Part shown: positions 1,174-17,941 of the stretch, in pieces | Layout of the letters: the number at the start of each line of letters is the position of its first letter | How positions within the stretch are numbered: position 1 is the first letter of the stretch | Notes under the pieces: model-generated | What the model saw: the letters and a program-made list of their open reading frames with translations, nothing else | Told to the model about the DNA's origin: nothing | The model's database searches: none | Position numbers and translations under genes: made by a program | IMG/VR virus record: IMGVR_UViG_2522572021_000012 | From: a virus | Taxonomy: Duplodnaviria > Heunggongvirae > Uroviricota > Caudoviricetes | Reading direction: 5' to 3' (one strand) | Length of the DNA stretch: 45,413 nucleotides

Positions 1174-1651
1174 ACCCTCAGGAGTTTCAAATAGCTGTTC
1201 TTTTTACGGAAATACTTATGAACTGGCTGGAATAAAGTGCAAGAAAATGTGACTACCCTCTCATTTTTATCTGACATGATCTGTTGCCACTCGCTGTCAA
1301 ATGGTTGCGCTAAAGCTGATTAGCACGGTGATATTTGATACTCTGGCAAACAGCAGAAATAACGGATTTAACCTAATGATGAATGACGGTAAGCAACAAT
1401 CTACCTTTTTGTTTCACGATTACGCGAAACACCCCTGAGAACCGCCATGAACAAGGGTTTCATGATTTGTGATTTTAGTTTGGTACGCAATTTGGTACAC
1501 AACACAATTTTCACTTCAGCGGGTAGTCATCAAACTCACCATAACGAGCATCGTTAATGATGTATGTGATCACCACAAACATCACATCTGGACTAGTTCC
1601 GTTTTCATGCGCAGGTATTTGTTCACGCCTCCCTTTCTGCAAATCCTAAAG

Positions 1652-1753
1652 ATGAGATTTAAAGGTGAGGAACTGGCGCAATATAATTTGTGGCTGGATT
1701 ATCTGGACGCACTGGAACTGGTCGATACCTCCAGTGCTCCAGATATTGAATGA
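1652..1753 (+). pseudogene. 3' remnant of a second tail-fibre assembly (Tfa/U'-type) gene, convergent with the intact tfa
   Basis: Last ~30 codons (LWLDYLDALELVDTSSAPDIE) mirror the C-terminus of the adjacent Tfa (LDYIDAVTATDTSTAPDV); the rest of ORF 1469-1753 is not fibre-like. Confidence 0.5.
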
Positions 1754-1754
1754 C

Positions 1755-2348
1755 CTACGCCTCCGGCAGTTCAGGCCAGATGACATCCGGCGCGGTGCTG
1801 GTATCTGTTGCCGTCACCGCGTCAATGTAATCCAGCACAGCGTTAAGTCTGGTTGTTTCTGCCTGCGTCAGTTTACGTCCGGCCTGTAATTTCAGCTGAA
1901 TCAGACTAATGGAAGCCATTGCTGCATCAATCAGTGACTGGCGCTGTGCTTCTGCCGCTTCTACTGCGGCACCGTGTTGTGCCTCAGTATCTGTCACCCA
2001 TTTCTCACCATCCCATTTATCATATGGCGTTAACGGTGAAAGCGTGACATAACCGTTTTTGATGGCACCGATATAATCCACTGTAACAGCAGCACCATTT
2101 TCGATTGAGTAAACAGTCTCATTGCGATGGTCTTCTTCATGGCTCCATCCCTTACCTGTAAATACTGCCACTCTTCTCGGAATGTTTTCGCCAGGGTCAA
2201 TTCCAGTGGAACAGGCGGGCATACTTACGCCAGTATTAATATATTCATCAGACCAGCCCGTATACTCAGATGTTTCAGCATCATAATAAAAACAACGCAT
2301 ATCGCCCGGCACTGTAGCCAGCCCATTTTTATCAAAAACAGGTTTCAT
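1755..2348 (-). CDS. tail fibre assembly protein (Tfa/U-like)
   Basis: 197-aa ORF immediately downstream of the fibre gene; C-terminal TSTAPDVIWPELP tail typical of Tfa chaperones. Confidence 0.75.
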   Translation of the reverse strand: MKPVFDKNGLATVPGDMRCFYYDAETSEYTGWSDEYINTGVSMPACSTGIDPGENIPRRVAVFTGKGWSHEEDHRNETVYSIENGAAVTVDYIGAIKNGYVTLSPLTPYDKWDGEKWVTDTEAQHGAAVEAAEAQRQSLIDAAMASISLIQLKLQAGRKLTQAETTRLNAVLDYIDAVTATDTSTAPDVIWPELPEA

Positions 2349-3142
2349 TATTTAGCCCTCACCAGAAAGTTAAATGCGATGTTACGTGGTCTGACGGCTA
2401 TAAAATTCACACCATCACCCACTGAATTACTGGTGTAATGGTATCGAGAGAAAACCGGCTCGTGTGCTGATATTCCATCGTGATTAGCAATCGAATGGCC
2501 GGATCCCTCTGGATAATTACCTCCAAATTGCGATAAAGATGTTGCTGCCTGCCAGCTTAATAATGCTCGTCCACTGTCCGCCCCTCGCCCGTCATCCCAG
2601 ATACGAATGAAATCACCGCGGGCTTCAGGTAATACCAGCGAAGGAAACACTTTCGCCAGCACAGGGTAATCAGTGGCAGAGAATTTCGCCCCGTTGAACT
2701 TCAAAAACACCATACTGGACCAGCTGTCGATTACAGTATTTGGCATTGCAGCGGACGGCCAGAAGAACGGAACGCCAATAGCTGGAGCACCTTCTCCCAA
2801 ACCAAGGTTTTCGAGAGCCGTTTTCACCGTGCCATCCGATTTGATATCGCCAAACGGATTCTTGCGGCTCAGGTATTCAACAGCAAACCCCGATCCCAGC
2901 AATTCAACAAAACCGGGCAGATCACCATTATCAAGCACATCCCGTTGCGTTTTATCACTTACAAACTGGGCCAGAGCTGCAGCAATAAAGCTGGCCTGCC
3001 GAATAACCTTATTGACTTGCGCACTGGATGCTTTCCCTGCTGTAAATCCGGATATAAGCGCAGGCAACGCTTCCCATTCCTCCTGCGACATAACATTGGC
3101 ATTTCGATCAGTTGCAAACGCTTTAAAGTCATTTTTCGCCAT
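2348..3142 (-). CDS. tail fibre protein
   Basis: ORF 2348-3160; start placed at MAKNDFKAF (ATGA overlap with upstream stop); N-terminus resembles lambdoid side-tail-fibre proteins; followed by tfa. Confidence 0.65.
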
Positions 3143-3822
3143 CAGAGTAATACTCCCCATGCCCCTACATCAAAACCACTGATGAATTCGTTATCCATAT
3201 CAAAACCAAAAAATTTAGAGCCTTCCGATGGAGTTTCCACCGAAGGTGTTTCAATGCCCCCCGCCCATACCCCGGCGGCTTTTACTGTTAGATACCCCTG
3301 TTTAATTGCCGCAATTAACTCACGCGATACATCTGAAATATCAGTATCAGGAAAGACCCAGACCGATATCGTCATGTCCTGGTTATCGACTATCTGCATT
3401 CGCAGCCCGGATCCTGCTGTTGCCGCGTCAAGAATTGCCGGAAGCGAATCATTCCGTCCGTCCCAGTTATTAATCGCAATCTTCGCTTTAAGAATGACAC
3501 GATAAGTTTCATCGCTGAGATACATGTATCCTGAATCAGGATCGTATGGTCCCTGCCATACCCCCTGATCATATCCAAGCCCGTCGGTATCCCAGCTGAA
3601 ATAGACACCTGAGATAGGCTGGCTGACAACACGGCTACGTCCGATCCACAATCCAAGAATGTCAAGTTGCACACCAACCGCAGAGTCAATATCAAATGCA
3701 GTAATCAGCCCTCTGGTGGCAGCCGCAACATCAATAAGTGGCCGGGTCATCAGATCAACATGCGCAAGAAATTTAGGTTTGGTGGCGTGGTAGTTCGTGA
3801 TTAGTTCGGTGTATTTGCTCAT
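3142..3822 (-). CDS. baseplate/tail protein (gpI / XkdU position)
   Basis: 226-aa ORF between the baseplate J-like gene and the fibre gene; function from synteny only. Confidence 0.5.
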
Positions 3823-5018
3823 GACTCCACCGTTATAACGATATTTTCCGGGGTACAGGACGCAGATTCGTTGTATCTGATATCAATGTTTGATGACGAC
3901 AAAGCCCCCGGGGATTTCCCAATCGTCAGTTCCTGAATATCGTAATAGCGTGCATTCCCGCCACTCACCACGCCAAGATTCGCCGGTGAGTAAATGCGAC
4001 TTAAAAGGACCGAATCACCAATCATCAGACTATTGATATAGTCGGAAATAGCCTGCTGGATCTGCTGCCCTATCTGTGAGGTATAACCCGTAAAAACTTT
4101 TAATTTAATCCGGGCATAAACAGGCACATCACTGGAACGCGAGAATTTGATTACATGGGGATTGCCGTATTTATCCGGAACCGTAACGGATGTTGTACCG
4201 TGAGTGGCTGTCCCCTGGCCTTTATTTCCTCTGATAGCCTGAGCAATATCCGTCACATCACCGCCATCCACAATTACAGCAACAGAGTGTGGCGGTAACC
4301 CGTTACCGTCCTCCGAACCAGTATCATTTTCATAGAGTTTGTGGCGGGTTACACCGGTAACATTAGAAACAGCACCATCCAGTGCTTCAAATGGGGTTAT
4401 TGATGGCAACGCAACACTTTGCGACTGACGGATACGTAACTCCGCATCAGTTTCTGCCGGAGTGCCTACAGTAGCTGCAGCAGGATTGGTTACCGAAACC
4501 CAGCCACGGGTTGGCGTATTAATTTCAGTGATAGTTCCAGCCAGCGCCGCCACTGCACCACTGACAGAACATGTTGCGGTCGCCATCACTGTACCATCCA
4601 CGCCGACCACCACTGAAGCAGGCAAACGCCATATCACATTATTACTGTCTTTCACGCTGCCATTAATGATGGTTGTTCCGGCAGTTCCTGTAAGAAGCAA
4701 ATCAACCGTAGAGTTCGTCGCGCCTTTACGTGAAATACCATTTATTTTCACGTTACTGGTCAGTGCAGCCCCATAGCCGGTTGCCGGTGAAAAACAGTTG
4801 TAGACAGTTATCGCAGTGTTATTGGCATCATGAATCGCCAGCGCCATCAGAGCCACCATCTGGCCGTCTTTGCTGTCCGGTTCGAGGTAGGCATCACTGC
4901 CATAAATCTGCTGAAAATAGCTAATCAGGGTGCTGAGTATCGTCTGATAATCAGGCGCACTGATCCCCTCCGCGGTTACCTTTGCAGATAAACCGAGAGA
5001 ATCAAGGTTCAGAGCCAT
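3819..5018 (-). CDS. baseplate J-like protein
   Basis: 399-aa ORF in the conserved baseplate position, translationally coupled to neighbours; family recalled, not searched. Confidence 0.65.
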   Translation of the reverse strand: MALNLDSLGLSAKVTAEGISAPDYQTILSTLISYFQQIYGSDAYLEPDSKDGQMVALMALAIHDANNTAITVYNCFSPATGYGAALTSNVKINGISRKGATNSTVDLLLTGTAGTTIINGSVKDSNNVIWRLPASVVVGVDGTVMATATCSVSGAVAALAGTITEINTPTRGWVSVTNPAAATVGTPAETDAELRIRQSQSVALPSITPFEALDGAVSNVTGVTRHKLYENDTGSEDGNGLPPHSVAVIVDGGDVTDIAQAIRGNKGQGTATHGTTSVTVPDKYGNPHVIKFSRSSDVPVYARIKLKVFTGYTSQIGQQIQQAISDYINSLMIGDSVLLSRIYSPANLGVVSGGNARYYDIQELTIGKSPGALSSSNIDIRYNESASCTPENIVITVES

Positions 5019-5371
5019 TACGCCTCCGATGTAACAGTCGTTATTCCATAAAGAGTGTCGATTTCAGCGGAAAACATGACACGTCGGGTCGTGGTATCCA
5101 CCGTCGTATTGAAAGAGAGGATTGATTTAACGCCCCGCGTTTCCAGAATGCGTTTTCTGATCGCCAGGTTGTAAGTTTCCGGTTTTTGCCTGCCCAGCAC
5201 GGACTGGATCCACGGAGTCCCCTCGGTGGTGTCGAGAAACCATTGCCCATACCACAATTCGAATCGCGTTTTTACCGCCTGCGCCACGGCCTCCGGTGAG
5301 TTAATCAGCCAGGTGTCATCACCGCTGCCAAAGGTATAATCGCCATCGGCGTCTTCACGTCTGTATCGCAT
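5018..5371 (-). CDS. baseplate wedge protein (gp25/gpW position)
   Basis: 117-aa ORF between the spike-like and J-like genes; synteny. Confidence 0.5.
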   Translation of the reverse strand: MRYRREDADGDYTFGSGDDTWLINSPEAVAQAVKTRFELWYGQWFLDTTEGTPWIQSVLGRQKPETYNLAIRKRILETRGVKSILSFNTTVDTTTRRVMFSAEIDTLYGITTVTSEA

Positions 5372-6126
5372 CAGTTAGGCGCTCCTGTGTTACCGCCGCC
5401 GGTCTGTACTCCGCCGTGCGTGTGCGTCATCAGGCTCTTACCACCAGCTTTTACATCGTTAGTCACCGTGACAGGGCCAAGCATCGTCGCGGTGCCGCCG
5501 CTTTCGCCCATCCCCTGAGAGAGATTCCCGTTTATTGTCACGTTGCCGTTTAGCGTGATGGTGGGTGATGTGATCGTGGTTCCTCCTTCTGCTGTCGCCG
5601 TCAACGCGCCGGGAGTTTTAACCGTGATATTATGGCCTGCGGCCACTTCCACAAACGCAGCGCCATCATCAGTACGCAGCTGCGCGCCACTGGTGCTTAT
5701 TCCGCTTATTTTCTGCGCCTGAGACTGCGGCCCGACGATACAGAAAGCATCCGATAAATCATGCACCCGGTCGTCGACAGGCTCCTGCACCCCGCCGTTC
5801 TGCCACCAGAAATCGATGCAGCGGTCGGCGAAAATCACCAGGCATTCATCCCCGGCTTTAACCGGAAAAGTCAACGTACAGCCTCCACCGCGCGGAAATA
5901 CCACTGGCACATCCACCAGCAACGGGTAATTTTTGGTAATGCGGTTACCGTCGTTATCCTTTTCAACCGAACGGATAGCTGGCTGCACAACCGCCGTCAC
6001 CGCGTCGGGATCGAATGACTGAACAATGCCAGGCAAGGCGACACGGATCTGGTTCTTTGTTGTTTCCCGTTCAGATTTGAATGTTTCGGCAAGGTCGCCG
6101 CTGCGGGTCTGGTCAGATACTGCCAT
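5371..6126 (-). CDS. baseplate spike / gpV-like protein
   Basis: 251 aa; Gly/Thr-rich C-terminal repeats (TITSPTITLNGNVTINGNL) suggest a beta-helical spike; GGAG RBS upstream. Confidence 0.55.
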   Translation of the reverse strand: MAVSDQTRSGDLAETFKSERETTKNQIRVALPGIVQSFDPDAVTAVVQPAIRSVEKDNDGNRITKNYPLLVDVPVVFPRGGGCTLTFPVKAGDECLVIFADRCIDFWWQNGGVQEPVDDRVHDLSDAFCIVGPQSQAQKISGISTSGAQLRTDDGAAFVEVAAGHNITVKTPGALTATAEGGTTITSPTITLNGNVTINGNLSQGMGESGGTATMLGPVTVTNDVKAGGKSLMTHTHGGVQTGGGNTGAPN

Positions 6127-6141
6127 TTAGTAGGCTCCAGA

Positions 6142-6167
6142 AAGCAAAAAACCCGCCGGGTGGCGGG
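6142..6167 (-). terminator. rho-independent terminator downstream of the 79-aa moron gene
   Basis: Minus strand reads CCCGCCACCCGGCGGG (6-bp GC stem) followed by TTTTTTGCTTT, 19 nt after the stop at 6186. Confidence 0.6.
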
Positions 6168-6185
6168 TTCATTATTGAAGTTTCA

Positions 6186-6425
6186 TTACTGCTTGTTTGC
6201 TTCTAACGCTTCAGCTATTCGGCGAAGATACTCATTGTTTTTAAATGAAACCATGATGCACTCAAAAAATATTCGGCAAAATACAGCACATAACAAAAGC
6301 ACTAAAGCGCCAGCAGCCTTCCCATTAACAAACGTTATAATGGCGGCAACAACCAGAAGTAACATTGTGATGCCATACAGAACGTTGATGATTTTTGGAG
6401 TTATTAATTTATCAAATCCGAACAT
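6186..6425 (-). CDS. small two-helix membrane protein (moron inside the baseplate operon)
   Basis: 79 aa with two hydrophobic segments; own terminator downstream and possible -10 upstream; not a recognisable virion protein. Confidence 0.6.
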   Translation of the reverse strand: MFGFDKLITPKIINVLYGITMLLLVVAAIITFVNGKAAGALVLLLCAVFCRIFFECIMVSFKNNEYLRRIAEALEANKQ

Positions 6426-6462
6426 GCGACAAATTCCTTATCGTGAAAGTAGAAGTATCACA

Positions 6463-6468
6463 TTATAA
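6463..6468 (-). promoter_or_regulatory. candidate -10 hexamer (TATAAT) for the 79-aa moron gene
   Basis: Perfect TATAAT on the minus strand ~37 nt upstream of the ATG; -35 is weak (TTGTTG at 16-nt spacing). Confidence 0.25.
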
Positions 6469-6478
6469 TTACGAGTGA

Positions 6479-6820
6479 TTAATCAACAATCTTTTTGCAT
6501 GGAAAGGAACCGATGATTTTCGGCGCATCCATGCTGTTCTGCAGCAGTTGCACATTCAGGAATCGCGTTTCGGTACCAGGGCGACGAATGTATTCAAAGC
6601 CGTAGTTGTTACCGTCTTTGGCAGGCATAATCCCCATGTCTACTTTCAAACCATTGGTACCCAGTTCGGTGATTTTTTGAGAGGTAACTCTTTCACCGTT
6701 AATTGTCGATAACTCGCCCTGGTTTGCAACCATAGTGTAGCCACCGCATTTAACCGTGAAGCCATCCGCCCACACGCTGCACGCAGAAAAGACAGCTAAC
6801 AGAAAAATGATACCCCTCAT
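6479..6820 (-). CDS. secreted/periplasmic small protein with signal peptide (moron)
   Basis: 113 aa; N-terminal MRGIIFLLAVFSACSVWA signal sequence; two Cys in the mature part; AGGGGA RBS; sits between hub-like and spike-like genes. Confidence 0.6.
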   Translation of the reverse strand: MRGIIFLLAVFSACSVWADGFTVKCGGYTMVANQGELSTINGERVTSQKITELGTNGLKVDMGIMPAKDGNNYGFEYIRRPGTETRFLNVQLLQNSMDAPKIIGSFPCKKIVD

Positions 6821-6823
6821 TGC

Positions 6824-7885
6824 TCATCCCCTTTGCAAAGCCGATTGCGTATACAGATCCGCCGCGCCACGCGCTTCGCACATCATATCCATGTACCACG
6901 CCTGGCCCCTTGTATCGCCAGTGTACATAATCCCGCGCACAATATAAACGCCATCCGTTGCGATGCTGGCAGGTTGTGCTGTGGTGCCGCTGAGCGTGAT
7001 ATTTCCGTCTGTGTTCTGGTCGGTGATCTGCCCACCAGCCATCGCGATATCATTGTTCGACAGCGCGGTGCGGTACACGGAAGCCTGATCCAGCTGAATA
7101 AGCCCGTTAACCCGGATGTTCGGATTAATAAGAGCGCGGACGTTTACGCCGTTACCGATAGTCTGCTGCGGCATGCCGATAAGCCCGGTGGCGCTGTTGA
7201 GCACAATCGCGTCGTGAACATACTCGTTATTCGCCACCATCTGGCGCTGACCGTCCACAAATTGCCATGTTGCGCCACATTGTCCGGCCACGTTATCCAT
7301 AAGATGCCGTGTCATGCCGAACAGCACCCGCCCTCGAGGGTATACGGTAGCAGGCATTTCAGGTGTCAGTCCTTCGGTCGCGCCTTTGGCCTCAAAGTCT
7401 TTCATCAGCGCACGGTTCACATCTGCGACTGTGTAACCGGCAGCCAGCGTCTGTGAGGTTATACTGGTGGCAAATGCCAGATCAGTATCTGCTGCCTGAA
7501 TCAGGACGTAGGTATCAACCGGACTGTCTTTTCCTGTGACCGAGTAGCGAATTTCTCCGCTGAAAATCAGCCCGTAGTTGCGGCCATCACTCTGGCCCAC
7601 GTCCGCCGCGTCAACTTCACGCACAGTCCCGACGTCGCTTGCCGCCACCTCCGGCGCGATACCGTCGTAACCGGCAATCAGCCGCACTTTCGAAAACTCC
7701 TGCCCGGTAATTCGGTTCACAGTATCTGCCGAAAGGTTATAAATTTTGATAGTCCCTACCCGGGACGCGCTGCTGATGTTGAACCAGTCGATCGTAAAGG
7801 TGACTTTGAAATCACTTAGCTCAATTCCCTTACCGTTCCCGTCCACAAGCTGCAGCTCGAAATGTCTCATCCAGTTCTGTGACAT
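6824..7885 (-). CDS. baseplate hub-like tail protein
   Basis: 353-aa ORF in the hub position of PBSX/Mu-like contractile tail modules; synteny. Confidence 0.5.
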   Translation of the reverse strand: MSQNWMRHFELQLVDGNGKGIELSDFKVTFTIDWFNISSASRVGTIKIYNLSADTVNRITGQEFSKVRLIAGYDGIAPEVAASDVGTVREVDAADVGQSDGRNYGLIFSGEIRYSVTGKDSPVDTYVLIQAADTDLAFATSITSQTLAAGYTVADVNRALMKDFEAKGATEGLTPEMPATVYPRGRVLFGMTRHLMDNVAGQCGATWQFVDGQRQMVANNEYVHDAIVLNSATGLIGMPQQTIGNGVNVRALINPNIRVNGLIQLDQASVYRTALSNNDIAMAGGQITDQNTDGNITLSGTTAQPASIATDGVYIVRGIMYTGDTRGQAWYMDMMCEARGAADLYTQSALQRG

Positions 7886-7887
7886 GC

Positions 7888-8190
7888 TTACTCCGTTGAT
7901 ACCAGCAAATGACTGCGCCCGCCCAGGTCAGTTTTCGTGGGATAATCCTGTGTGTTGTCATCGCAGACCACCAACAGCTTAAAACCAAGTCCCATACAGG
8001 CGTACTGCGCCAGCAGATCAGCGCCAGTGACGAGAGGAATACCGGAGATTACCGGCTCTCCTCTGTCGTTCTGCAGGTCCATAATCCAGTAAGGATCGCG
8101 CCATATGATGCTAATCCGCCAGGTGACACCACCCAGGACGATGCTGAACTGCTGGTTGTCCGCTGTCAGCGGAATTTCCTGAATTGTCAT
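7888..8190 (-). CDS. small tail protein, hypothetical
   Basis: 100-aa ORF coupled between neighbours in the tail operon. Confidence 0.45.
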   Translation of the reverse strand: MTIQEIPLTADNQQFSIVLGGVTWRISIIWRDPYWIMDLQNDRGEPVISGIPLVTGADLLAQYACMGLGFKLLVVCDDNTQDYPTKTDLGGRSHLLVSTE

Positions 8191-8777
8191 TAGCCGCCTC
8201 CCAGTAATGACGCCACGTTACCCGTGATGCTTTTCAGCAGTGAAGTATCTGGAGGCTTTGTGGTTTTGTTACCGCTATTCTGTACCGCCGACGTGCTGGC
8301 CCCTTCCTTCATGTTGGTTTTATCCGCGACGGTAATCTGCTGTGTCCGGGAGATAATGACCTCCCTCAGGGTGAGGACGGCGGACAGGACGTTTTCGGTT
8401 GTCTTGTCCGTCGTCACTTCCAGCGCCCGGATCAACATGTTGCTGTACAGCCGTTTACCGGTTACCACATCGAAGGGGATACGGCTTTCCTGCAGATCCA
8501 GTAGCTCCTGATACGTCTGCTGAGGACTCAGGCCGAGCAGGCTGGTAGCCGTCAGATTACTGGCAAAATCCAGCAATGCGCCGCCACCGGCGAAACCAAC
8601 CTCCATCACCACTTCTGACGGTTTTTTATAGGCATGATCAGCGACAGCGGCCCCGACCTCTACCGGATGCTCTGTTATTTCAAGCATATCTGTATGCTTC
8701 TCTGAAATAACAACACTGGGAACAATCATTCCTATTTTTCTGCTCTGCTGATGAAAAAGTGTAGAGAGAATATCCAC
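8190..8777 (-). CDS. tail protein (XkdP position), hypothetical
   Basis: 195-aa ORF directly downstream of the tape measure gene. Confidence 0.45.
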   Translation of the reverse strand: MDILSTLFHQQSRKIGMIVPSVVISEKHTDMLEITEHPVEVGAAVADHAYKKPSEVVMEVGFAGGGALLDFASNLTATSLLGLSPQQTYQELLDLQESRIPFDVVTGKRLYSNMLIRALEVTTDKTTENVLSAVLTLREVIISRTQQITVADKTNMKEGASTSAVQNSGNKTTKPPDTSLLKSITGNVASLLGGG

Positions 8778-10786
8778 TAACCCACCCTCACCTGATTACT
8801 TCGCATGACCTGAGCATTTGCAGACTGTTGCCGACGTGCAACCTCATTACCGACAGCGTGCGGATCTCCGCCACCGTAAATGTGGTAAGTATTTTGCTGG
8901 TTAACCTCTGTCATTTTGCCACTAATTCCCGCCACGGCAGCCTTATTAATCAGCTCTCGAGAATAGATATTTCTTCCATTCTCATGCTGGATAATGCTGC
9001 TCATCAATGCTGACATGGTTTGCGGATCGCTCATATTCAGGGCAGCCCGGGGATCCACTCCCAGTCGTTGCGATACAGCCCTGATATACGCAGTTGTGTT
9101 GTTATTATCAGACGCAGGTGCCCAGGTAGAGATAATTTTCTCCACACTGTTTATTCCCCGTCCGGCGTACAGCATTAACTGACGAGCAAGAGCCCGTAAT
9201 CCATCAAAAGCAGTTTCAAATCTGGCAAATCGCCCGCCCGGGCGTTCAAGAGAAGCCCCTGCCTGACCAGCAAAATTAAGGTTTCCCGGATTGTTATTCC
9301 GTTCTCCTCGTTTCGTAGCCTGTGCATATTGTTCCGGCTCATCATCACCAAACCAGCCGCGTACCGTCCGGCCCACACTGCGGGGATCGAATCCCCAGTG
9401 CTCTTTAATCCAGTCGGCAGTACTGTTAGCGCTGTCTGTAACCATCGGCATCGCTGACGGATTTTCGCTGCCCTGATTAAGTATCTGTTTGCCGATGATG
9501 ACGGCATCAGCCCAGCGGCCATCTTTGATAGCGTTGAGCAGGTCGGCGATCATGTTCAGCATTTTGCTGAATTCGCCCATCTGGTCGATGAAGTTGCTGA
9601 AATCCCACTTCAGGGACCATGATTTGGGGTCAATATTGAGCAGTTTCGCCAGCGCTTTCGCCAGTTCATTAACAGACCCTTTCAGGTCACGAACCATCTT
9701 CAGCGCGGCATCGACCTCCGGCTTCCACTTGCCCCAGTCAATCAGGCTGTCGCCGCCTTCCTTCCAGGTCTGATAGTCCTCCCACAGAAGGGCAATCCCC
9801 GCCGCCAGCGCGGTAATGAGGCCAATCGGCGACATCCAGAACGTACTGTTCAGAATGCGCAGCGCAATCGTCAGCGCGCCAAACAGCGAGATGAGCTCCC
9901 GCGTTTGCTTATCCAGCGATTGCCACCAGGTGATAAGGCTGGATGTTCCCTCAATTAGCCTGAAGAACAGCCGCCCGATGATGTCTCCGATCGCCAGAAT
10001 GCCTTTTATGGCTTTCGTCAGGGTCTGCTCGATGCGCGGGAAGTTATCGAGGATGTGGCGGCGCAGTGTGTCCAGCGAACCCGCCAGACCACCAGCAAGA
10101 TTAGAGCCGATTTTGTCACGGGCCATGCCTGCCATCGCGCCGAACTCGCGCAGGGAGGTCATGAATTTGTTGGAGCTTCTGGCCGCCTCGTCAGCATTGA
10201 AGCCGATAGCTTTCGCCATTGCGCTGTACTGCCCGGAGAAATCACCCACACCCCGGCGCATCGCCATAAGGGTATTTTCGTCAATGCCTAGCATCTGCGC
10301 ATACTGGTTAGCCCGGTAATACGGCATGCCGCTGAGCTTCTGGCCTACACCTGTAAAAATAGCGGCCATGTCACGCATGTTACCGCTGGCATCCCGTGTC
10401 TGTACCCCCAGGCGATTCAGGAAGCCTTCCGCGCCGGGATTGTTACGAACAAACCGGGAGAGGCTTTCCAGAGAGGTTCGCGCCGCGTCCACGCTGCCGC
10501 CAACCTGCGAAACCGCATAGCCAATAGACTGAATTCCCTGGACTGTCGCGCCGGTGCGCTGTGACGCCCGGTAAAGATTATCCAGGCCGGAGGCGATCTT
10601 AGCCGTGAAGGCCACCACGGACAGCGCAGCTCCTTCAACGGCCAGTCCCATTTTGATGACATTTGCAGTTGTACCGGCGAGGACAGAACCGAACTTTTTC
10701 GCTCCTGCATCATCCACGCTGAAGCCAAGCGAGACGAGGAAATCTTTAATAGTTTCAGCGTTCATTATCCTCTCTCCATTTCTCAA
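8777..10786 (-). CDS. tail tape measure protein
   Basis: 669-aa Ala/Gly-rich ORF downstream of the chaperone; the chaperone frameshift extension ends at its start; alternative start MNAETIKD at 10765. Confidence 0.75.
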   Translation of the reverse strand: MRNGERIMNAETIKDFLVSLGFSVDDAGAKKFGSVLAGTTANVIKMGLAVEGAALSVVAFTAKIASGLDNLYRASQRTGATVQGIQSIGYAVSQVGGSVDAARTSLESLSRFVRNNPGAEGFLNRLGVQTRDASGNMRDMAAIFTGVGQKLSGMPYYRANQYAQMLGIDENTLMAMRRGVGDFSGQYSAMAKAIGFNADEAARSSNKFMTSLREFGAMAGMARDKIGSNLAGGLAGSLDTLRRHILDNFPRIEQTLTKAIKGILAIGDIIGRLFFRLIEGTSSLITWWQSLDKQTRELISLFGALTIALRILNSTFWMSPIGLITALAAGIALLWEDYQTWKEGGDSLIDWGKWKPEVDAALKMVRDLKGSVNELAKALAKLLNIDPKSWSLKWDFSNFIDQMGEFSKMLNMIADLLNAIKDGRWADAVIIGKQILNQGSENPSAMPMVTDSANSTADWIKEHWGFDPRSVGRTVRGWFGDDEPEQYAQATKRGERNNNPGNLNFAGQAGASLERPGGRFARFETAFDGLRALARQLMLYAGRGINSVEKIISTWAPASDNNNTTAYIRAVSQRLGVDPRAALNMSDPQTMSALMSSIIQHENGRNIYSRELINKAAVAGISGKMTEVNQQNTYHIYGGGDPHAVGNEVARRQQSANAQVMRSNQVRVG

Positions 10787-10994
10787 TGCGCCGCTGGTTA
10801 TCCGCTTTTACCGCCAGATGGTCATTCAAGAGAGCAATGTCGTACAAATCGACAGAGCCATCTTTAAGTGCTGTATAAGGAATTAACCCGGCGTCAACCG
10901 GATTGAGAAGGTAAGACAGCCCGTCCGGCAGGCTGTTAAACGTCAGCCCTGTTGCAGGCTCTGCGTCGTGCTGGTAAGGGGTGTAGGCAAAAAA
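10787..10994 (-). other. programmed -1 frameshift extension of the tail assembly chaperone (slippery heptamer TTTTTTG at 10988-10994)
   Basis: Zero-frame codons AAT TTT TTG lie 17 codons before the chaperone stop; the -1 frame stays open through the 10787-10942 gap and ends at a TGA overlapping the tape-measure start. Confidence 0.55.
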
Positions 10995-11395
10995 TTTCCC
11001 AGCGAATCGGCGACCACCCGCGCCACCAGATGCAGCATGACCAGCAAGTCAATATCATCAAACATCAGTTCGCCCTGGGTAAATACCGGAACCCATCCGT
11101 CCATATGACGCCGCGATACCACCGCAAGACAGGGATGAATAATCGCACTGGTGTCATCTTCGGTCAGGGAAGACAGTTCCTCAGCGATACGCGGGAGCAT
11201 GGTTTCAAACACCGGTTTTAACTGCTCGAATTTCACGGTGTCGATTTTGCCATCAGCAGGCAAACGGGAGCGAATGCTCCCGAAATCTGACATCATTCCT
11301 GCCAGCACCGGCAGAAGTTTGCGGGTCACTTTCAGCTGATCAAAAACGCTGAGTTTTGCCGCGCGATATTTCACGCCTTTGATTTCGAATTCCAT
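10943..11395 (-). CDS. tail assembly chaperone
   Basis: 150-aa ORF between tube and tape measure genes with a slippery site near its 3' end. Confidence 0.6.
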   Translation of the reverse strand: MEFEIKGVKYRAAKLSVFDQLKVTRKLLPVLAGMMSDFGSIRSRLPADGKIDTVKFEQLKPVFETMLPRIAEELSSLTEDDTSAIIHPCLAVVSRRHMDGWVPVFTQGELMFDDIDLLVMLHLVARVVADSLGNFLPTPLTSTTQSLQQG

Positions 11396-11398
11396 GTA

Positions 11399-11839
11399 TT
11401 AAAACTCCCCGAGAACCTGGTCAATCTTGCCGCAGTCAAACACCCACGGCATCGTATTACCGGTTTTAGCGTTGGCATTATCCGGTTGTTTCTGGAACGC
11501 AACACTGCGTGCCGTGATGATGTCGCCGCTGACCTTGTTTCGGATCACAATAACGTTATTCCCCCATGTGGCAGAAGACTGGCTCTGTGCGTTATACGCC
11601 AGCGACAATTTTTTATTTGTCGGTGATGTCTTCAGAAGGTTAACGGTAATCGTCCCGCTTTTATCTGCATGGAGACTGTGCATCACTTCGCCATCAGAAC
11701 CGATGGTCATGGTGTTTTTAGGGCCGCCCATCGCAACCACAATCCCCTCTTCAGAACTTGCAGAACCGTACCCGAGGTCAATCGAACCGGTCGGCCCGGT
11801 CAGCGTCGCAGTGACATCCATAAAAGAATAGGTAGACAT
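11399..11839 (-). CDS. tail tube protein
   Basis: 146-aa ORF immediately downstream of the sheath gene; synteny and size. Confidence 0.7.
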   Translation of the reverse strand: MSTYSFMDVTATLTGPTGSIDLGYGSASSEEGIVVAMGGPKNTMTIGSDGEVMHSLHADKSGTITVNLLKTSPTNKKLSLAYNAQSQSSATWGNNVIVIRNKVSGDIITARSVAFQKQPDNANAKTGNTMPWVFDCGKIDQVLGEF

Positions 11840-11849
11840 TCACTTCCCC

Positions 11850-12995
11850 TTAGCGAACAACGTTAATCTGTACGTCAGCGTAATGAACCGCGCCTGCAAG
11901 TTTTATTGCAGCCTGAATCACCGGAGCCTTACGGGCTTCACGTTCTGATTGTGCCTGTTCATCCAGCGGCTGGGCGTATACGTAATAACCTTTGGGCAGC
12001 GTGTCACCTGATGACAACTGGCCAAGGTCGCCCCCGTTCCATACGCCCGGAGCAATCAGTCCATTCTGAACGGCCTGATCCAGTGATTTTTCAACATTTG
12101 ATAACAGTCGGGTAATACCGGCTTCAGTCTGGGGAACTTTCGTGGTGCTGGTATAAAGCAGGTTATAGAGGTTGGTCTGCACATAATTCTGTAACCAGTC
12201 CAGGCCGTGGCGTTCATCAAAGAAATCGCCGTTAGCCATCACTCCCTGCTGGAGGATAGCTGTATCATTCTGGTAGTACACGAACACATTGCAGTTTTTT
12301 GCATCAAGTGCCGATGCCTGGCTGACTGTCAGTGTTTCATACCCGACACCCGGCTCCTGCTTAAACTTGAGCGTAATCGCGGTATTACTGCCATTGAAAT
12401 TAACCGTGAATGCCCGGCCAAATGCAGATAACGCAGCGTATTTATTACCCGATGAATATTGAATAAAACTGCGTGAATATCCGGCGGTTTTCAGTTTTGA
12501 TGCCAAATCATCGCTGGATGCAGTCTGCAGGCATTTCTCATCGCTTGTCGTAATCGCCAGAATACGGCTTACAGAAGAGGATTCGATCGCCGCAGCCACT
12601 TTCAGCCAGTCTGCATCCGGAATATCTGCATCGTCTGCAATCCCCAGCCCATACCATGAAGTATAATCAAGCATGGCATTCACAGCCTGCTCCAGCGTCT
12701 CAGGCGTGGCCTGTTCGCTGTCTCCCTTCGTTTTCACCCAACGACCAACAAAAACCTCCTGAGGTTTCGGTGATTGTGAGAAAAACACCTGCGCAGCTTT
12801 ATATTCTGGTGATTCCACGCCAAAATCTTTTCCAATATCTTCCGCGGCAGAATAACGGCGAATGCGCTCACTTACCGGAATGATTGTGGACGGGCCGAGA
12901 ATGAGTAATGCACCAAAATTTCGCCCTGATGCTGCACGCGGCGACATGATCACATCAACATTAACAACGTTTGATACAGGCAAGCCCTGTGCCAT
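11850..12995 (-). CDS. tail sheath protein
   Basis: 381-aa ORF at the head of the tail operon, followed by tube, chaperone and tape measure genes. Confidence 0.7.
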
Positions 12996-12998
12996 AGC

Positions 12999-13565
12999 TT
13001 AATCTCCGAAAAAGATGACTGGTGCTTCCACCAGCGATTTAATACCGTACTCGCGCACAACCTTCCGGCGCAGACGCACCGTCATATCGTAGCGGCGGAC
13101 CCATTGCTGATTAATAAGTTCAGGGAAGGGAGTCAGACCTGTGTAATCGCCAAGAGACAGCCCCAGCGCATTCAGTGCTGCATTGTTCTGCGGTACAGAT
13201 ATACCGTCACGAAACCGGGACGCATACACCATCCCCGCCGGACCATAAAACGAAGCCATACACTCAATCGTTTCATGCCGCCAGAGCTGAGAGCCATCAT
13301 CGGTCTGTCTGGTGAATGCCGGACTGTCATCACCTGACCATCCGATAACCCCAAACGCACACCAGTTCGTTTCAACCGGTAGCAGTGGCGGCTGCTCTTT
13401 CTGCCAGCGCGGACGAACCACCCCGGCAGACAGACCGGAAACGTTACGCATCCACTGGCTTAACAGCCTGTCGAGCGCTTCGTCATAATCCGGATCGCCA
13501 CTGGTTGGTATTAACCATCCGCGCTCTGTGCTGGTGTTATTGCTCAACCGGAATTCCCCCATCAA
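12999..13565 (-). CDS. virion protein (neck / tail completion position), hypothetical
   Basis: 188-aa ORF between head-tail joining genes and sheath. Confidence 0.45.
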   Translation of the reverse strand: MMGEFRLSNNTSTERGWLIPTSGDPDYDEALDRLLSQWMRNVSGLSAGVVRPRWQKEQPPLLPVETNWCAFGVIGWSGDDSPAFTRQTDDGSQLWRHETIECMASFYGPAGMVYASRFRDGISVPQNNAALNALGLSLGDYTGLTPFPELINQQWVRRYDMTVRLRRKVVREYGIKSLVEAPVIFFGD

Positions 13566-13926
13566 ACGGCATCAACTCACAATGCGCCTGAACGAATCCG
13601 GCACCATACGCTGTATACGGGTCGACGAAAGTCACACGATAATCACGGCCCTGATACGTCACGATATCTGCATCACGGCCAGTCTGCCCCTGTGTCAGCC
13701 GCTCAGTTGTCACGATAAGAATCGCGCCACTGATAACTTGCCCGGACTGCATACGGCGGTTCTCCAGGGAGCGGTCAACGGTAACAACTCCGGCAAACTG
13801 CGTTTTAACTTCGCTGTCACTGCCGATCCCGTCATCGTCCACCGTTTGCACGCGACGCGTTACCCACAGGTTGAAGTCGCAAAAATCGGGGTCAAAAAGC
13901 ACGTCTGTTACATCAAGAGTCGGCAT
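13537..13926 (-). CDS. head-tail joining protein, hypothetical
   Basis: 129-aa ORF in the connector region; synteny. Confidence 0.45.
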   Translation of the reverse strand: MPTLDVTDVLFDPDFCDFNLWVTRRVQTVDDDGIGSDSEVKTQFAGVVTVDRSLENRRMQSGQVISGAILIVTTERLTQGQTGRDADIVTYQGRDYRVTFVDPYTAYGAGFVQAHCELMPFDGGIPVEQ

Positions 13927-14467
13927 CTTTATCCCTCACTACATGGGTAATAGCTCTGCGGTACTGTCCGGTGTCAATTAGCGGTTTCACCAGATCGGTT
14001 CCGGGTGACTCGCCAGCAGCGCGTCGGGCAAGCTCAGCTTTCGCCCCTTTGCGCCCTCGACGTGCGCGGGCTTCAACAGTGCTGTCAGCAAGCGGCGTAA
14101 AGCCGGTAATAGTCATGTAACGCCTGACGCCATTAGCGGCCAGCGTTCCGGCGCGGTTGAGTGCTCTTTCCGCCCCCGCCGCATTTCCATCAAGCGCAGC
14201 CTGCGCCGCTGTTTTGAGCTGCGGCAACGTCTGTTCTTCTACCGATTTAACGCCGGGGACCAGGTGAGGTCGTGGCGGGATGTTCTGCTCTGGTGAGCCG
14301 TATTCGTTGAGGTAACCGATGCCCGCATTACCAAACGGAACATCATCCCGCCCGCTGTCTTCCGAAGGGATGCCGACCAGCACATCTTTTTTGGTTAACG
14401 ACCTGAGCGCATCCAGAATGGCCTTAGCGTTATCCACCCTCGTTGTTACACCGCTTTTGAAACTCAT
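13913..14467 (-). CDS. head-tail connector-type protein, hypothetical
   Basis: 184-aa ORF; synteny. Confidence 0.45.
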
Positions 14468-14871
14468 AGCTGGCGACCGCCTGCACCGAACATCGTGATC
14501 AACTGATAAAATTCAGCGCCATATCGGGTGTTATTCCAGAAACCTGCATCAGGATTCAGCGTCGCGCTGGTGTCATAGCTGACGCTTACCTTATCCACGG
14601 ACTTTGAGGACTGAACACCATTGGTTGAACCGCCCGGACCACCAGCCAGCATCGCTCTGCTGTCTGCCGCCCAGAGCGTCATGTAGTGCGCAACGAACAA
14701 TCCGGCAAAGTACGGAAACAACTTTTTGCCGGTGACGTTTTCACTCAGCAGTTCATCGGCCAGATTCAGACGGAACCCGATTTGGGCGTCGGGATATTTT
14801 GCCGGGTCAGCAAACTGCGGGAAGTCGCGGCGAAAATCACTTACCGCTGGCAGACTTTGATTCTTTGGCAT
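14464..14871 (-). CDS. head-tail adaptor-type protein, hypothetical
   Basis: ORF 14464-14955; start moved to MPKNQSL (14871) to reduce overlap with the upstream gene; 14883 is an alternative. Confidence 0.45.
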
Positions 14872-15205
14872 CTTTAGCCCCATTACCGCCAGTCCGGGCG
14901 GCAGTAATCTGCGCCTGCAGGCTGTCGTTCTGCTCCTGCAGTTTGAGCAATGCATCTTTCAGATCGGCAATCAGCTTATCTTTGTCGGCAATCTGCGCTT
15001 GCAGGCCGTCGATAATGGGTTGCAGATCATCGGTGTCGCTAATCACGCTTTCGGAAAGCTCAGAGTGCGCCTGGGTGAACCAGTGCGACGCGACCTCTTC
15101 CGGTACGTTATGCCGTCCCCGGCCAAACTCCTGTTTTGACTGATCGCCGAGCGTCAGCGTAAACGGGGTGTGAACATGGATGGTAACCAGCTTTTCTTTC
15201 GCCAT
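14837..15205 (-). CDS. coiled-coil protein downstream of the capsid gene, hypothetical
   Basis: ORF 14837-15436; start placed at MAKEKLV (15205) with AGGAAA RBS; C-terminal heptad-like region. Confidence 0.45.
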
Positions 15206-15245
15206 TTCAGTTTCCTTCAGGCCCCTTTCGGGGCCATTCTGGTTA

Positions 15246-16187
15246 TCAGATACCGTCCACATAGGACAGAGTTTCTTTATACACTGGCTCGACTGCACCC
15301 AGCTTGCCGTAGTAAGTGACGATCTGATACAGACCGCGATACTGCACCGGCACGCTCTGAAGCGGAACCAGCGGGTAGCGGACGTATTTTTTATCGTTGG
15401 TGTACGCAACCATGCGATCCTTATTCCCCACACCACGGCCTTTCAGCCATTTAACCGCGCGGATATTCAGCGGAACACCGTTCTGGTGATAGCTGATGGT
15501 GTTGGTCTGAAGGTACGTCAACAGGGACTGGTTACCCGCAGATGAAACGATGATGCTGGACAACAGAGCAAACTGCTCAGGCGGGATCAGCAAATCACGC
15601 GGAACCACAGAGTAACCGGAAGCGGCCCACGCATCAGACAGCACCTGGTTAATGCTTGCGCGGATTTCGTCCGGTGTTGAGGTTGCCCACGTTTTGGCAG
15701 CGTTGTTGACAGGCACGCCGTCCAGGGTAACAAGGCCTTTCAGGTTTAATGCGGAATCGCCAACATACACCTGCTCGTCGTTGTCCATCTGCCATTTGAG
15801 CTGCATCCCGTCATACTTCTGCGTATCGATCGGGCGTCCGACCTGCTGAGCAGCCTGCAATTCTATGACCGTCCAGCCAAGCTCCATCCCCCACAGGTTC
15901 AGCGGGTTACCGGATTTGCCGATATCCACGTTTACGCCAGCAATAGCGGTTGAGTCTTTGCCTACCCAGTTTTTGCCATTCGGATTTGCGCCAGTACCCG
16001 CAGCGGCGAAGCTGGTATTCGTCCAGCTGGAAATGTCATCTGCGATGGAGACATCTTCACGCAGTTGGATATCGCGGGTCCAGGTGTACCCCACCAGTGG
16101 CAGGTTCAGCGTCTGGTCGAGTCGTTCCAGCTCCCCGATGAGAAAGGCACCAGAGCTGTCAACGGTTGCCTGATCAAAAGTAATCAT
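15246..16187 (-). CDS. major capsid protein
   Basis: 313-aa ORF downstream of the protease/scaffold and small head protein genes; size and position as in Mu-like head modules. Confidence 0.75.
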   Translation of the reverse strand: MITFDQATVDSSGAFLIGELERLDQTLNLPLVGYTWTRDIQLREDVSIADDISSWTNTSFAAAGTGANPNGKNWVGKDSTAIAGVNVDIGKSGNPLNLWGMELGWTVIELQAAQQVGRPIDTQKYDGMQLKWQMDNDEQVYVGDSALNLKGLVTLDGVPVNNAAKTWATSTPDEIRASINQVLSDAWAASGYSVVPRDLLIPPEQFALLSSIIVSSAGNQSLLTYLQTNTISYHQNGVPLNIRAVKWLKGRGVGNKDRMVAYTNDKKYVRYPLVPLQSVPVQYRGLYQIVTYYGKLGAVEPVYKETLSYVDGI

Positions 16188-16198
16188 TCGTCTGTTCC

Positions 16199-16702
16199 TT
16201 AAATCTTCCAGGAAATTTCTGCATTGCCGTTAGCATCACCGGCACCTGTGAATTCAGCATTGGTCAGCACCACGTTTTTGCCACTGACTGACGTGGCCAT
16301 GAATCCACCCAGCGGCACTTTGATGGATTCATCAGTGGAGACGACAACGTATACCGGGTCGCCTTTTTTGATGGTGCTGGCATCAAAATCAGAACCGAGA
16401 TTAACGGTCACGTAGCCACGCTTCATTGCGTCGCCCGGGAAGTTCTTGCCACTCCCCACCTGGCGAACCATGTCCGGCTGCGAAGTGGTCGGATAAGGGC
16501 GCACATAGATCCCCTTCACCTTGTCTGCGGTATCACCATCTGCCAGCGGCACGAAAAAACCGTCATCATCGTATTTACCAGCCAGCCCATAGGCAGCGAA
16601 GGCGTTATCGGATTTAAGGACCACCGGTTCGACGGTTAAGTCCTGCGGGCGAGAGATAGCCCCGGCAATGCCAACAGGCATCCGGTACAGATATGCAGTC
16701 AT
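16199..16702 (-). CDS. head protein (decoration/stabilisation position), hypothetical
   Basis: 167-aa ORF between the protease/scaffold and capsid genes. Confidence 0.5.
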   Translation of the reverse strand: MTAYLYRMPVGIAGAISRPQDLTVEPVVLKSDNAFAAYGLAGKYDDDGFFVPLADGDTADKVKGIYVRPYPTTSQPDMVRQVGSGKNFPGDAMKRGYVTVNLGSDFDASTIKKGDPVYVVVSTDESIKVPLGGFMATSVSGKNVVLTNAEFTGAGDANGNAEISWKI

Positions 16703-16706
16703 TGGA

Positions 16707-17927
16707 TTATCCTTTGCGGTTAGACCAGAATTCGGCGTTTTGTTTGTTCAGGGAAGCGATGCTGGTCATGCCCATGTTTGGGCGCTGTGCATCGCCGGTG
16801 GTGGCGCGGGTGTTTCGCCCTTTGGCAATCTCAGACACGGCATTAAACGCCATGTTGACCGATTGTTTCGGTAATTTGCGGATATCCGCATCACCGACGA
16901 TCTGGCGAACCAGCGTTTTATCTGCGGAAGCCAGAACCTCGCGTTTGAACGCGGTCGGTTTCATCTTACGGCTCAGATCGATACCCGGAACGATAACTTC
17001 GGCACGCCAGGCTGAGTCACCAGTAATCGTGGTTTCCTCTTCATCGTCCTCGCCGTCACCGGTCGGATTATCGTCAGGCTTATTGTCGTTATCGCCCGTC
17101 GCATTTCCTTCCAGCTTAGCCAGCAGGGCTTTCAGTAATGTTTTGAGGTCATCATCACTGTCGCCGGTTGGACCTCCACCCATCTCTGGTGCTTTGTCCG
17201 GTAGTGGTTGCTGCGGGGACAGGTTGATGTTGAGATTAACGCCCTGCGGCAAATCTCCCTCATCTCCTGTAACCGATGCGGGAGCCGACTCCACCAGTTC
17301 GTTCATGGTGTCGGCATCTCCTGTCTTGATGGCTGCACGCATGCGGTTCCACCAGTTTTTCTTTTGATTTGCCATTGTGTCTCTGTCTCCAATTGCACAA
17401 CGATTTCCGGCTCTGCCTTTGGGGACAAGAGCCACATGGTTTCCGGTAATATCGACCTGCTCGGCTTTACCTGGCTCGGTCTGCTCGTACTCCGCGTCAT
17501 AACCGCACGACACTTCACGCAGGCCATCTTCGATAAGCTGAATGGCGTTTTCGTCTTTGACGATAAGGTCAGCCAGCATCAAATCAGACTGCTCACCCGT
17601 CCCGCGCCGGACATTCTGGAGGTGCCCGACAGCAAGCTCTTTCCAGTTCTCGGGATTTACCAGCCGCACATTCCCGTTTTCATCTTCAGGATGCAGGATC
17701 GTGATGCTCATCCCTTCGAATGAGGCGAGCGTGGCCGGATGGAATACCTGCTCAGGAGAACGCGTTACGACTATCTCACCGAGCTTGTCGGGTTTGAGGT
17801 TTGGCAGATCGGCAGCGCCGTAGAGCTGCTTACCCGTTCGACCTATCGGCACGTCTTTGCACAGCAGCGAGCCGTCAGCCAGCTGATAGCGGGTTTCCCC
17901 CAGCCGGGTATTGAAAAAATATTTCAT
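16707..17927 (-). CDS. prohead protease/scaffold-like protein
   Basis: 406 aa with a long acidic Asp/Glu/Gly-rich segment (GDSDDDL, DNKPDDNPTGDGEDDEEE); position matches Mu gpI-type protease-scaffold. Confidence 0.5.
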   Translation of the reverse strand: MKYFFNTRLGETRYQLADGSLLCKDVPIGRTGKQLYGAADLPNLKPDKLGEIVVTRSPEQVFHPATLASFEGMSITILHPEDENGNVRLVNPENWKELAVGHLQNVRRGTGEQSDLMLADLIVKDENAIQLIEDGLREVSCGYDAEYEQTEPGKAEQVDITGNHVALVPKGRAGNRCAIGDRDTMANQKKNWWNRMRAAIKTGDADTMNELVESAPASVTGDEGDLPQGVNLNINLSPQQPLPDKAPEMGGGPTGDSDDDLKTLLKALLAKLEGNATGDNDNKPDDNPTGDGEDDEEETTITGDSAWRAEVIVPGIDLSRKMKPTAFKREVLASADKTLVRQIVGDADIRKLPKQSVNMAFNAVSEIAKGRNTRATTGDAQRPNMGMTSIASLNKQNAEFWSNRKG

Positions 17928-17941
17928 GGTTTACCTGCGAT

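Follow-up and report, generated by a model that had tools for sequence, protein, structure and literature searches.

The hub and spike genes of a contractile-tail baseplate operon enclose two small genes in the viral record IMGVR_UViG_2522572021_000012 of the IMG/VR database (Caudoviricetes), a stretch of 45,413 nucleotides (nt) referred to here as the window. Open reading frames (ORFs) of 113 and 79 amino acids (aa) had been placed between these genes by an initial annotation; both are present on the minus strand and are termed orfA and orfB. The interval probably constitutes an accessory locus of two tiers, situated where the hub and spike genes meet in a temperate myovirus prophage that is SEN34-like (Brunovirus-type) and has lambda-type late control. 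The first tier would be orfA, apparently a fixed gene of the phage family whose translation follows directly on that of the hub and whose product leaves the cytoplasm through the Sec pathway. The second would be a cargo slot that extends from the orfA stop codon to a conserved terminator and that is occupied in the window by an AT-rich orfB cassette. The coordinates of these features are collected in Table 1.

Table 1. Features of the hub-spike interval and its flanking genes, in window coordinates.
Feature	Position	Strand	Evidence or detail
Hub gene (353 aa), left anchor of the locus	6824..7885	-	Pfam E217_GP41, E = 1.8e-5, 24.6 bits, under the 27-bit gathering cut-off
orfA (113 aa), predicted exported protein, conserved in the family	6479..6820	-	starts 3 nt past the hub stop codon
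Predicted orfA signal peptide, residues 1-18	6767..6820	-	alignment of homologues and AlphaFold pLDDT (predicted local distance difference test)
Promoter-like element of orfB	6462..6489	-	TTGTTG 6484-6489 (overlaps the last orfA codons), 16-nt spacer, TATAAT 6462-6467
orfB (79 aa), DUF4282, predicted two-helix inner-membrane protein	6186..6425	-	Pfam PF14110; phrog_12129
Intrinsic terminator, right boundary of the cargo slot	6143..6170	-	CCCGCC-ACCC-GGCGGG + T6; hairpin itself 6149..6170
Spike gene (251 aa), right anchor	5371..6126	-	gpV-type N-terminal spike domain PF18352 (1.4e-43) and Apex motif
Segment moving as a unit: last 75 nt of orfA, promoter region, orfB, terminator	~6135..6553	not assigned	identity across diverged prophages

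A sequence identical to the window is found in E. coli S51 (NZ_CP015995), where it forms part of a prophage adjoining tRNA-Arg and intS. This prophage has genes for an antiterminator of the Q family and a holin of the lambda type, and its myovirus tail module is of the SEN34 (Brunovirus) type. SEN34 combines a lambda-like genome with myovirus morphology (PMC5261728). Relatives were drawn from IMG/VR as a hub-anchored sample of 80 loci, which is unbiased as to orfA, and as an orfA-anchored sample of 80 loci; IMG/VR contains 537 contigs positive for the hub. A survey of 5426 complete E. coli genomes yielded 408 (~7.5%) with hub homologues, and a species-level scan, limited to a single genome from each species, identified 19 loci in Pantoea, Dryocola, Rosenbergiella, Citrobacter, Pseudescherichia, Raoultella, Enterobacter, Shimwellia and others. 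Phage genomes were compared by tblastn with orfA.

The space between orfA and the spike gene, 67-1848 nt long in the relatives, is a cargo hotspot rich in defence-type and envelope proteins. In 74 hub-anchored loci its contents include genes of the DUF4282 family, to which orfB belongs (15 loci), a 192-aa protein together with a YafO toxin (9 loci; Pfam 1e-17), three-helix membrane proteins (3) and DUF2335 proteins (2), among others. Two-gene cargo in these loci comprises pairs of a 243-aa and a 142-aa protein (~20 loci), the small partner being weakly HEPN-like, and pairs of 256-276 aa and 123-131 aa (~14 loci). PD-Lambda-1, an exported OB-fold-like protein, an HExxH protein and small exported proteins occupy the slot in species-level loci. 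In Dryocola clanedunensis (L024:8339-9765) the slot holds a 408-aa T5orf172 protein that matches PD-Lambda-1, a validated defence system (PADLOC, 1.4e-82), and some other slots carry toxin-type and weakly PycTM-like membrane proteins. Defence hotspots of prophages and their satellites, such as those of P2 and P4, were reportedly described by Rousset et al. in 2022. They share with the present site a fixed position between conserved phage genes and alternative cargo that includes PD-Lambda-1 and toxin-antitoxin-like pairs. The present site differs in belonging to the SEN34-like family, in lying within a baseplate operon, and in being preceded by a conserved exported-protein gene and followed by a conserved terminator.

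The terminator is the top-ranked candidate within positions 1200..21000, the ~20-kb structural region. Its hairpin has a folding energy of -16.4 kcal/mol (z = -3.2), and the pattern of hairpin and T-run is unique in the window (0 expected). The initial annotation had read it, together with an upstream TATAAT, as the classic signature of a moron; the terminator is real, but it is a feature of the site and not of the cassette. When a hairpin with a T-run was sought at most 90 nt from the spike start in 96 relatives, a CCCGC..GCGGG hairpin and T-run was present in 91 of them whatever the cargo, including the relatives with empty slots (L098 and L102). Three of the remaining five have variant hairpins. 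Since the hairpin is kept across all cargo types and in empty slots, the terminator belongs to the site. A conserved terminator in the middle of an operon, even where the slot is empty, also implies a non-antiterminated transcript that ends there, and this transcript possibly includes orfA.

The gene orfB is the mobile cargo of this slot and matches the profile of a moron, and the two-tier anatomy built on it is very likely. It has the patchy presence at one position and the distinct base composition and codon usage that mark morons. It is found in 16 of 80 hub-anchored relatives and in 86 of the 408 hub-positive E. coli genomes. Its G+C content (GC) of 0.371 and its GC at third codon positions (GC3) of 0.375 are the lowest of the region, and its codon adaptation, 0.630, is the lowest among the 14 tail-region genes compared. 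A dip in G+C content to 0.36-0.42 (vs ~0.55) spans orfB and its intergenic regions, and the 53-nt spacer between orfA and orfB is AT-rich; orfA lies outside the dip. The cassette is at least 99% identical in 79 of the 86 E. coli genomes, and hub DNA identity over the 408 genomes is ~67-100%. Cassettes 98-99% identical occur even in prophages with a hub just 47% identical at the protein level. The promoter-like element goes along with the cassette: in 84 of the 86 E. coli genomes positive for the latter it is 98-100% identical. LWY24 (L005:6291-6431), CDE6306 (L020:3786-3926) and TB06053 (L004) each carry a 75-nt 3′ remnant of a window-type orfA between a divergent resident orfA and the DUF4282 cassette, which defines the extent of the mobile segment.

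The family is also found elsewhere. DUF4282 genes without orfA are present in siphovirus-type and other prophages, and they occupy other classical moron sites: right behind the tape-measure gene in Klebsiella siphovirus-type prophages, Edwardsiella phage GF-2 and E. coli CX08, and behind the lysis cassette in Pantoea. A GC hairpin with a T-run comes next in each, and better -35/-10 pairs lie upstream of these DUF4282 cassettes than of orfB. In phage GF-2 (L011:4001-7200) the DUF4282 gene is followed by an Arc-like/Arc-like/Ant block that resembles the P22 immI region and is inserted in the tail module. Juhala and Hendrix are said to have set out the moron concept in 2000, and lom and bor of phage lambda are examples. 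Envelope-located products are typical of morons. As an extra late-operon gene with a promoter-like element, a terminator, deviant composition and a patchy distribution, orfB resembles lom and bor. The terminator at orfB, in contrast, is fixed at the insertion site and common to all cargo and empty sites, and is not brought by each moron.

The orfB product had been described as a small membrane protein with two helices, and this description held up. It matches Pfam DUF4282 with 42.2 bits (cut-off 27), residues 2-71 aligning to profile positions 2-85 of 86, and PF14110 is found in 86 of 87 orfB homologues, the exception being a 59-aa fragment. The AlphaFold model is a helical hairpin with helices at residues 10-33 and 37-78 (pLDDT 87). 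The membrane cores and the short loop vary among homologues, and the N-terminal LITPKI, Arg51, Glu55 and the C-terminal FKNNEYLRRI are invariant; the latter residues make up the motif R51..E55..FKNNEYLRRI, and the Arg51/Glu55 pair lies in helix 2. The charge distribution indicates an N-in/C-in topology, which would place the motif-bearing termini in the cytoplasm.

Cumby et al. reportedly showed in 2012 that the HK97 gp15 moron, encoded in the tail cluster, is an inner-membrane superinfection-exclusion protein. HK97 gp15 acts on tape-measure-dependent DNA entry, and its gene lies before the tape-measure gene. Like it, orfB is a small inner-membrane gene among the tail genes of a temperate enterobacterial phage and is absent from close relatives, and DUF4282 genes repeatedly adjoin tape-measure genes. 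The two differ in location (hub-spike junction vs before the tape-measure gene) and share no sequence similarity by PHROGs and Pfam. Homology of orfB to T4 Imm or HK97 gp15 was not found in PHROGs, Pfam, NCBIfam or PADLOC, which returned only families of unknown function, and a PDB profile search was empty. A role of orfB in DNA entry is proposed because of its location in a defence hotspot and the repeated adjacency of DUF4282 to tape-measure genes. On this ground orfB is put forward, tentatively, as a superinfection-exclusion or defence factor at the inner membrane.

Being a small protein of two membrane helices in which an intramembrane Arg/Glu pair is conserved, orfB could instead be a membrane-disrupting effector that serves abortive infection or sets the timing of lysis and does not block incoming phage DNA. 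The toxin-type and weakly PycTM-like membrane proteins among the other slot cargo would suit such an activity. The alternative is nevertheless unlikely: orfB is a stand-alone gene without a sensor partner, the S51 prophage has its own holin, endolysin and lysis genes away from the hub-spike locus, and orfB has no PADLOC match.

The distribution of orfA is of a different kind. Among the hub-anchored relatives, 74 of 80 carry a member of the orfA family directly behind the hub. The gene is hub-adjacent in all 80 orfA-anchored loci and in every genome locus that retains the hub; L034 is a truncated remnant without a hub. The gap between the two genes is 3-22 nt over the IMG/VR and genome loci (6-22 nt in 80 IMG/VR loci). 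From Pantoea to Shimwellia, orfA stands next to the hub wherever a hub is present in the 19 species-level loci. In phage genomes, homologues right behind the hub were found in YP3 (96% identity), SEN34 (68%), Mulock (69%), vB_EcoM-606R2 (62%) and the RCIP0034/GZ7/Wanchaivirus group (53%). The post-hub position is kept even by an orfA of 26% identity in Klebsiella phage ST340-VIM1phi10.1 and by an E. coli allele of 32% identity. The initial annotation had placed neither gene in any contractile-tail set known to it; of the two, orfB is accessory and orfA is conserved at the hub throughout the family. With a GC of 0.465, a GC3 of 0.526 and a codon adaptation of 0.751, orfA resembles the tail genes (hub: 0.549, 0.621 and 0.763). 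It is under purifying selection (dN/dS, the ratio of nonsynonymous to synonymous substitution rates, 0.13, compared with 0.10 for the hub and 0.16 for the spike), and positive selection was seen neither overall nor over residues 20-45, where dN/dS is 0.30.

At this fixed position the sequence is variable and can be replaced. orfA is the most divergent gene of the module, with a mean pairwise identity of 0.63 vs 0.69-0.88 for the others, and its identity tracks hub identity the least closely (rho 0.56 vs 0.65-0.87 for the other full-length structural genes). Hubs that are 96% identical accompany orfA alleles just 57-76% identical to that of the window. At synonymous sites orfA has diverged about twice as far as the hub, which fits allele exchange between lineages. 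In the other 6 of the 80 hub-anchored relatives, orfA is replaced by a 241-aa lipoprotein (lipobox LTSC) or a ~154-aa signal-peptide protein, behind hubs 96-97% identical to the window hub. One of these loci retains a 45-nt 3′ remnant of orfA behind the unrelated 154-aa exported-protein gene (L009:4437-4481). Taken together, the orfA family and its unrelated exported replacements mean that the post-hub gene encodes a predicted exported protein in all 80 loci.

The N-terminus of orfA has a positive n-region, a hydrophobic core whose sequence varies among homologues, and an invariant Ala18 at position -1. It is therefore predicted to be a Sec-exported protein cleaved by signal peptidase I after V-W-A18, and residues 1-18 form a low-confidence stretch of the AlphaFold model (pLDDT below 50). 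This agrees with the signal peptide of the initial annotation, whose count of two Cys does not apply to the precursor. The precursor has three, of which Cys14 is unconserved and lies within the signal peptide; Cys25 and Cys108 are invariant even in members that are ~25% identical. A lipoprotein was considered, as FSAC resembles a lipobox, and was rejected because Cys14 is not kept among homologues. After cleavage at Ala18 the mature protein of ~95 residues is modelled as an eight-stranded beta-barrel (pLDDT 70.5); strand 1 contains Cys25 and strand 8 contains Cys108, and the two are probably joined by a disulfide.

The orfA family is narrow. An exhaustive HMMER search of 1.8 billion proteins yielded 33 representatives and a profile search 597 clusters, and every member is an unannotated protein of ~110-120 aa from Enterobacterales. 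No Pfam family, MliC included, matches orfA at E values up to 1, and membership in the PliC/MliC lysozyme inhibitors, which with PhiA are periplasmic inhibitors of peptidoglycan hydrolases, is indicated neither by a Pfam MliC match nor by a specific structural match. PADLOC, NCBIfam and PDB sequence searches were uninformative for both proteins, and neither matches an anti-phage defence system catalogued in PADLOC-DB 2.0. In Salmonella phage SEN34 the homologue SEN34_20 (L003:2707-3048) is deposited as a 77-aa ORF; a full 113-aa orfA homologue with a signal peptide begins right behind the hub, and the start of the deposited gene seems to be mis-annotated.

A non-structural, periplasmic orfA is likely. 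The competing view is that orfA is a structural or assembly component of the baseplate whose hydrophobic N-terminus inserts into the membrane or is buried in the hub and is not an export signal. Its strict synteny with the hub, the 3-nt gap suggestive of translational coupling, the tail-like codon usage and the purifying selection all suit this view, and a conserved position in the baseplate gene set is a feature of contractile-tail structural proteins. By its sequence and distribution, in contrast, orfA does not look like a cytoplasmic and irreplaceable virion protein. The signal-peptide features are canonical, with a variable core and the invariant Ala18, and the two invariant Cys fit a periplasmic disulfide. 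Unrelated proteins, one of them a lipoprotein, take the place of orfA behind nearly identical hubs. The least conserved and least hub-coupled gene of the module is moreover present in one genome as a four-copy array of diverged alleles. A baseplate role is quite improbable, and orfA is very probably not a part of the virion. E217 gp42, which Pseudomonas phage E217 encodes between its hub gp41 and tip gp43 (L041:9595-10128), was examined as an analogue and rejected: it is an unrelated 177-aa cytoplasmic protein without a signal peptide. It goes unmentioned in the published paper on the E217 virion.

The initial annotation had combined the two genes into a single acquired moron, whose products would act together as a toxin/immunity or two-part exclusion module. 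They are indeed adjacent on the same strand between conserved tail genes, with a terminator next, and they occur together as in the window in ~50 E. coli genomes. Their distributions are independent, however. orfA is found without orfB in ~80% of relatives, empty slots included; DUF4282 genes occur without orfA in other phage types; and the cassette moves without orfA, taking along just the 75-nt remnant. Prophages lacking the insert and a contrast in GC and codon usage with the flanking tail genes had been named as checks. Both bear out the moron for orfB, which is absent from the empty slots of L098 and L102 and compositionally distinct, and both speak against it for orfA, which is retained there and differs from orfB in base composition and codon usage. 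With 74 of 80 relatives carrying it next to the hub, orfA is neither patchy nor compositionally distinct, and the conservation across the phage family that the initial annotation had set against its own proposal was found for this gene, in the same post-hub place throughout the relatives. A joint two-gene module is highly improbable.

That orfB is no gene at all, its place being taken by a longer antisense ORF of 102 aa (6160..6468, plus strand) or by none in an AT-rich spacer, is almost certainly wrong, for orfB passes the DUF4282 gathering threshold, its homologues (45-99% identity) keep length and invariant motifs while the DNA diverges, a Shine-Dalgarno sequence AAGGA (6435-6439) lies 9 nt before its ATG, and its helical hairpin is predicted with confidence. 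The antisense ORF is probably a spurious product of AT-rich sequence, and automatic ORF pickers will prefer it for its length.

The anatomy suggests how the two tiers would be expressed. In the lysogen, a sigma-70 promoter with a perfect -10 and a weak -35 element would drive a short orfB transcript. The slot terminator would end this transcript and leave the spike and the tail genes beyond it unexpressed. In the lytic cycle, Q-antiterminated late transcription would read through the terminator. The orfB protein may act in the inner membrane, possibly against DNA entry of an incoming phage as HK97 gp15 or T4 Imm do, and orfA may act in the periplasm as an exclusion or immunity-type factor. For orfA this function is a doubtful suggestion drawn from its location and compartment. 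T4 Spackle (Sp) and P1 Sim are periplasmic superinfection-exclusion proteins of myoviruses, and Spackle is helical. orfA resembles them as a small signal-peptide protein of a contractile-tailed phage, predicted to reside in the periplasm where the incoming tail tip and lytic domain act. It differs in being modelled as an all-beta barrel, without sequence or specific fold similarity to either.

Several points weigh against this picture. The TATAAT hexamer (6462..6467), noted by the initial annotation ahead of the second gene, is present 36 nt upstream of the orfB ATG, but on its own it is weak promoter evidence: the window has 9 TATAAT against ~15 expected, which puts a lone hexamer within chance, the best -35 sequence (TTGTTG) matches at 3 of 6 positions, and a consensus scan called no promoter. 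For orfA, the promoter search found only a weak 8/12 match in the 3′ end of the hub gene (TTTATA-17-TACACT). Co-variation of orfA alleles gave no specific signal indicative of a partner against tape-measure N and C, the Dit-like protein, the plug, hub, spike, gpW, gpJ or gpI, the tape-measure C-terminal domain having too few comparable sequences. A part in assembly would likewise suit the strict synteny of orfA, its tail-like codon usage and the way its translation appears coupled to that of the hub. Finally, the functional assignments of both genes derive from location and cellular compartment only.

Some features of the neighbouring genes complete the description of the locus. A Shine-Dalgarno-like GGGGA for orfA sits within the 3′ end of the hub gene, and the ribosome-binding site of the spike gene (GGAG, 6135-6138) directly follows the terminator. 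Some 110 nt at the hub 3′ end (6830-6950) are near-invariant DNA, third codon positions included, among 83 unique sequences that are mostly close relatives; this stretch could be a recombination anchor or a regulatory element. The tape-measure protein of the module carries a lytic transglycosylase (SLT) domain. Its C-terminal part (8777-9310; the C-terminal third) is mosaic, with only 5 of ~24 relatives aligning there, and the N-terminal parts are 52-95% identical.

A more specific proposal for orfA starts from Pseudescherichia vulneris NBRC 102420 (NZ_BBMZ01000043.1, L027:300-3000). Four diverged orfA-family genes stand in tandem between hub and spike with a period of ~620 nt; copy 2 has a premature stop, and upstream of each of copies 2-4 lies a duplicated piece of the hub 3′ end (94-100% amino-acid identity). 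The array is a single case among ~180 loci, with no further tandem arrays in 160 IMG/VR loci, and it may reflect recombination history only. CDI (contact-dependent inhibition) and Rhs loci contain orphan toxin/immunity arrays, in which duplicated fragments are the footprint of new cassettes displacing old ones by recombination. The P. vulneris locus is similar in stacking four diverged alleles, of which copies 2-4 come with the duplicated 3′ end of the upstream gene. It differs in that it is one example in ~180 loci, has no toxin domain, and has duplicated hub fragments that are conserved rather than variable.

In this proposal, the post-hub position would be a dedicated slot for exported proteins and orfA a periplasmic factor that confers immunity or exclusion in an allele-specific way, its target being the puncturing device of related contractile-tailed phages or of tailocins. 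Alleles would be exchanged, and sometimes stacked, by recombination for which the invariant hub 3′ end serves on one side and the conserved orfA 3′ end or the terminator on the other. The neighbouring slot, bounded by the terminator, would contribute more defence cargo, DUF4282 for example. The stacked array is the main support for the idea that orfA alleles carry specificity. The proposal as a whole is rather unlikely; if true, temperate myoviruses would possess a new class of superinfection immunity directed at the tail.

Morons and prophage cargo hotspots are already known kinds of element. The hub-spike cargo hotspot is new as far as literature searches show, since these found no description of orfA, orfB or a cargo site at this junction. 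The prophage family that carries it occurs in ~7.5% of the complete genomes of E. coli and has a wide distribution in Enterobacterales. Its precisely bounded slot provides a list of uncharacterised defence candidates that includes DUF4282, the two-gene pairs, and exported and membrane proteins. Telling the fixed orfA apart from the mobile orfB guards against annotating the former as either a moron or a tail protein. It also raises the question of how a temperate myovirus would benefit from secreting a small, predicted disulfide-bonded barrel into the periplasm, for which the stacked array offers a handle.

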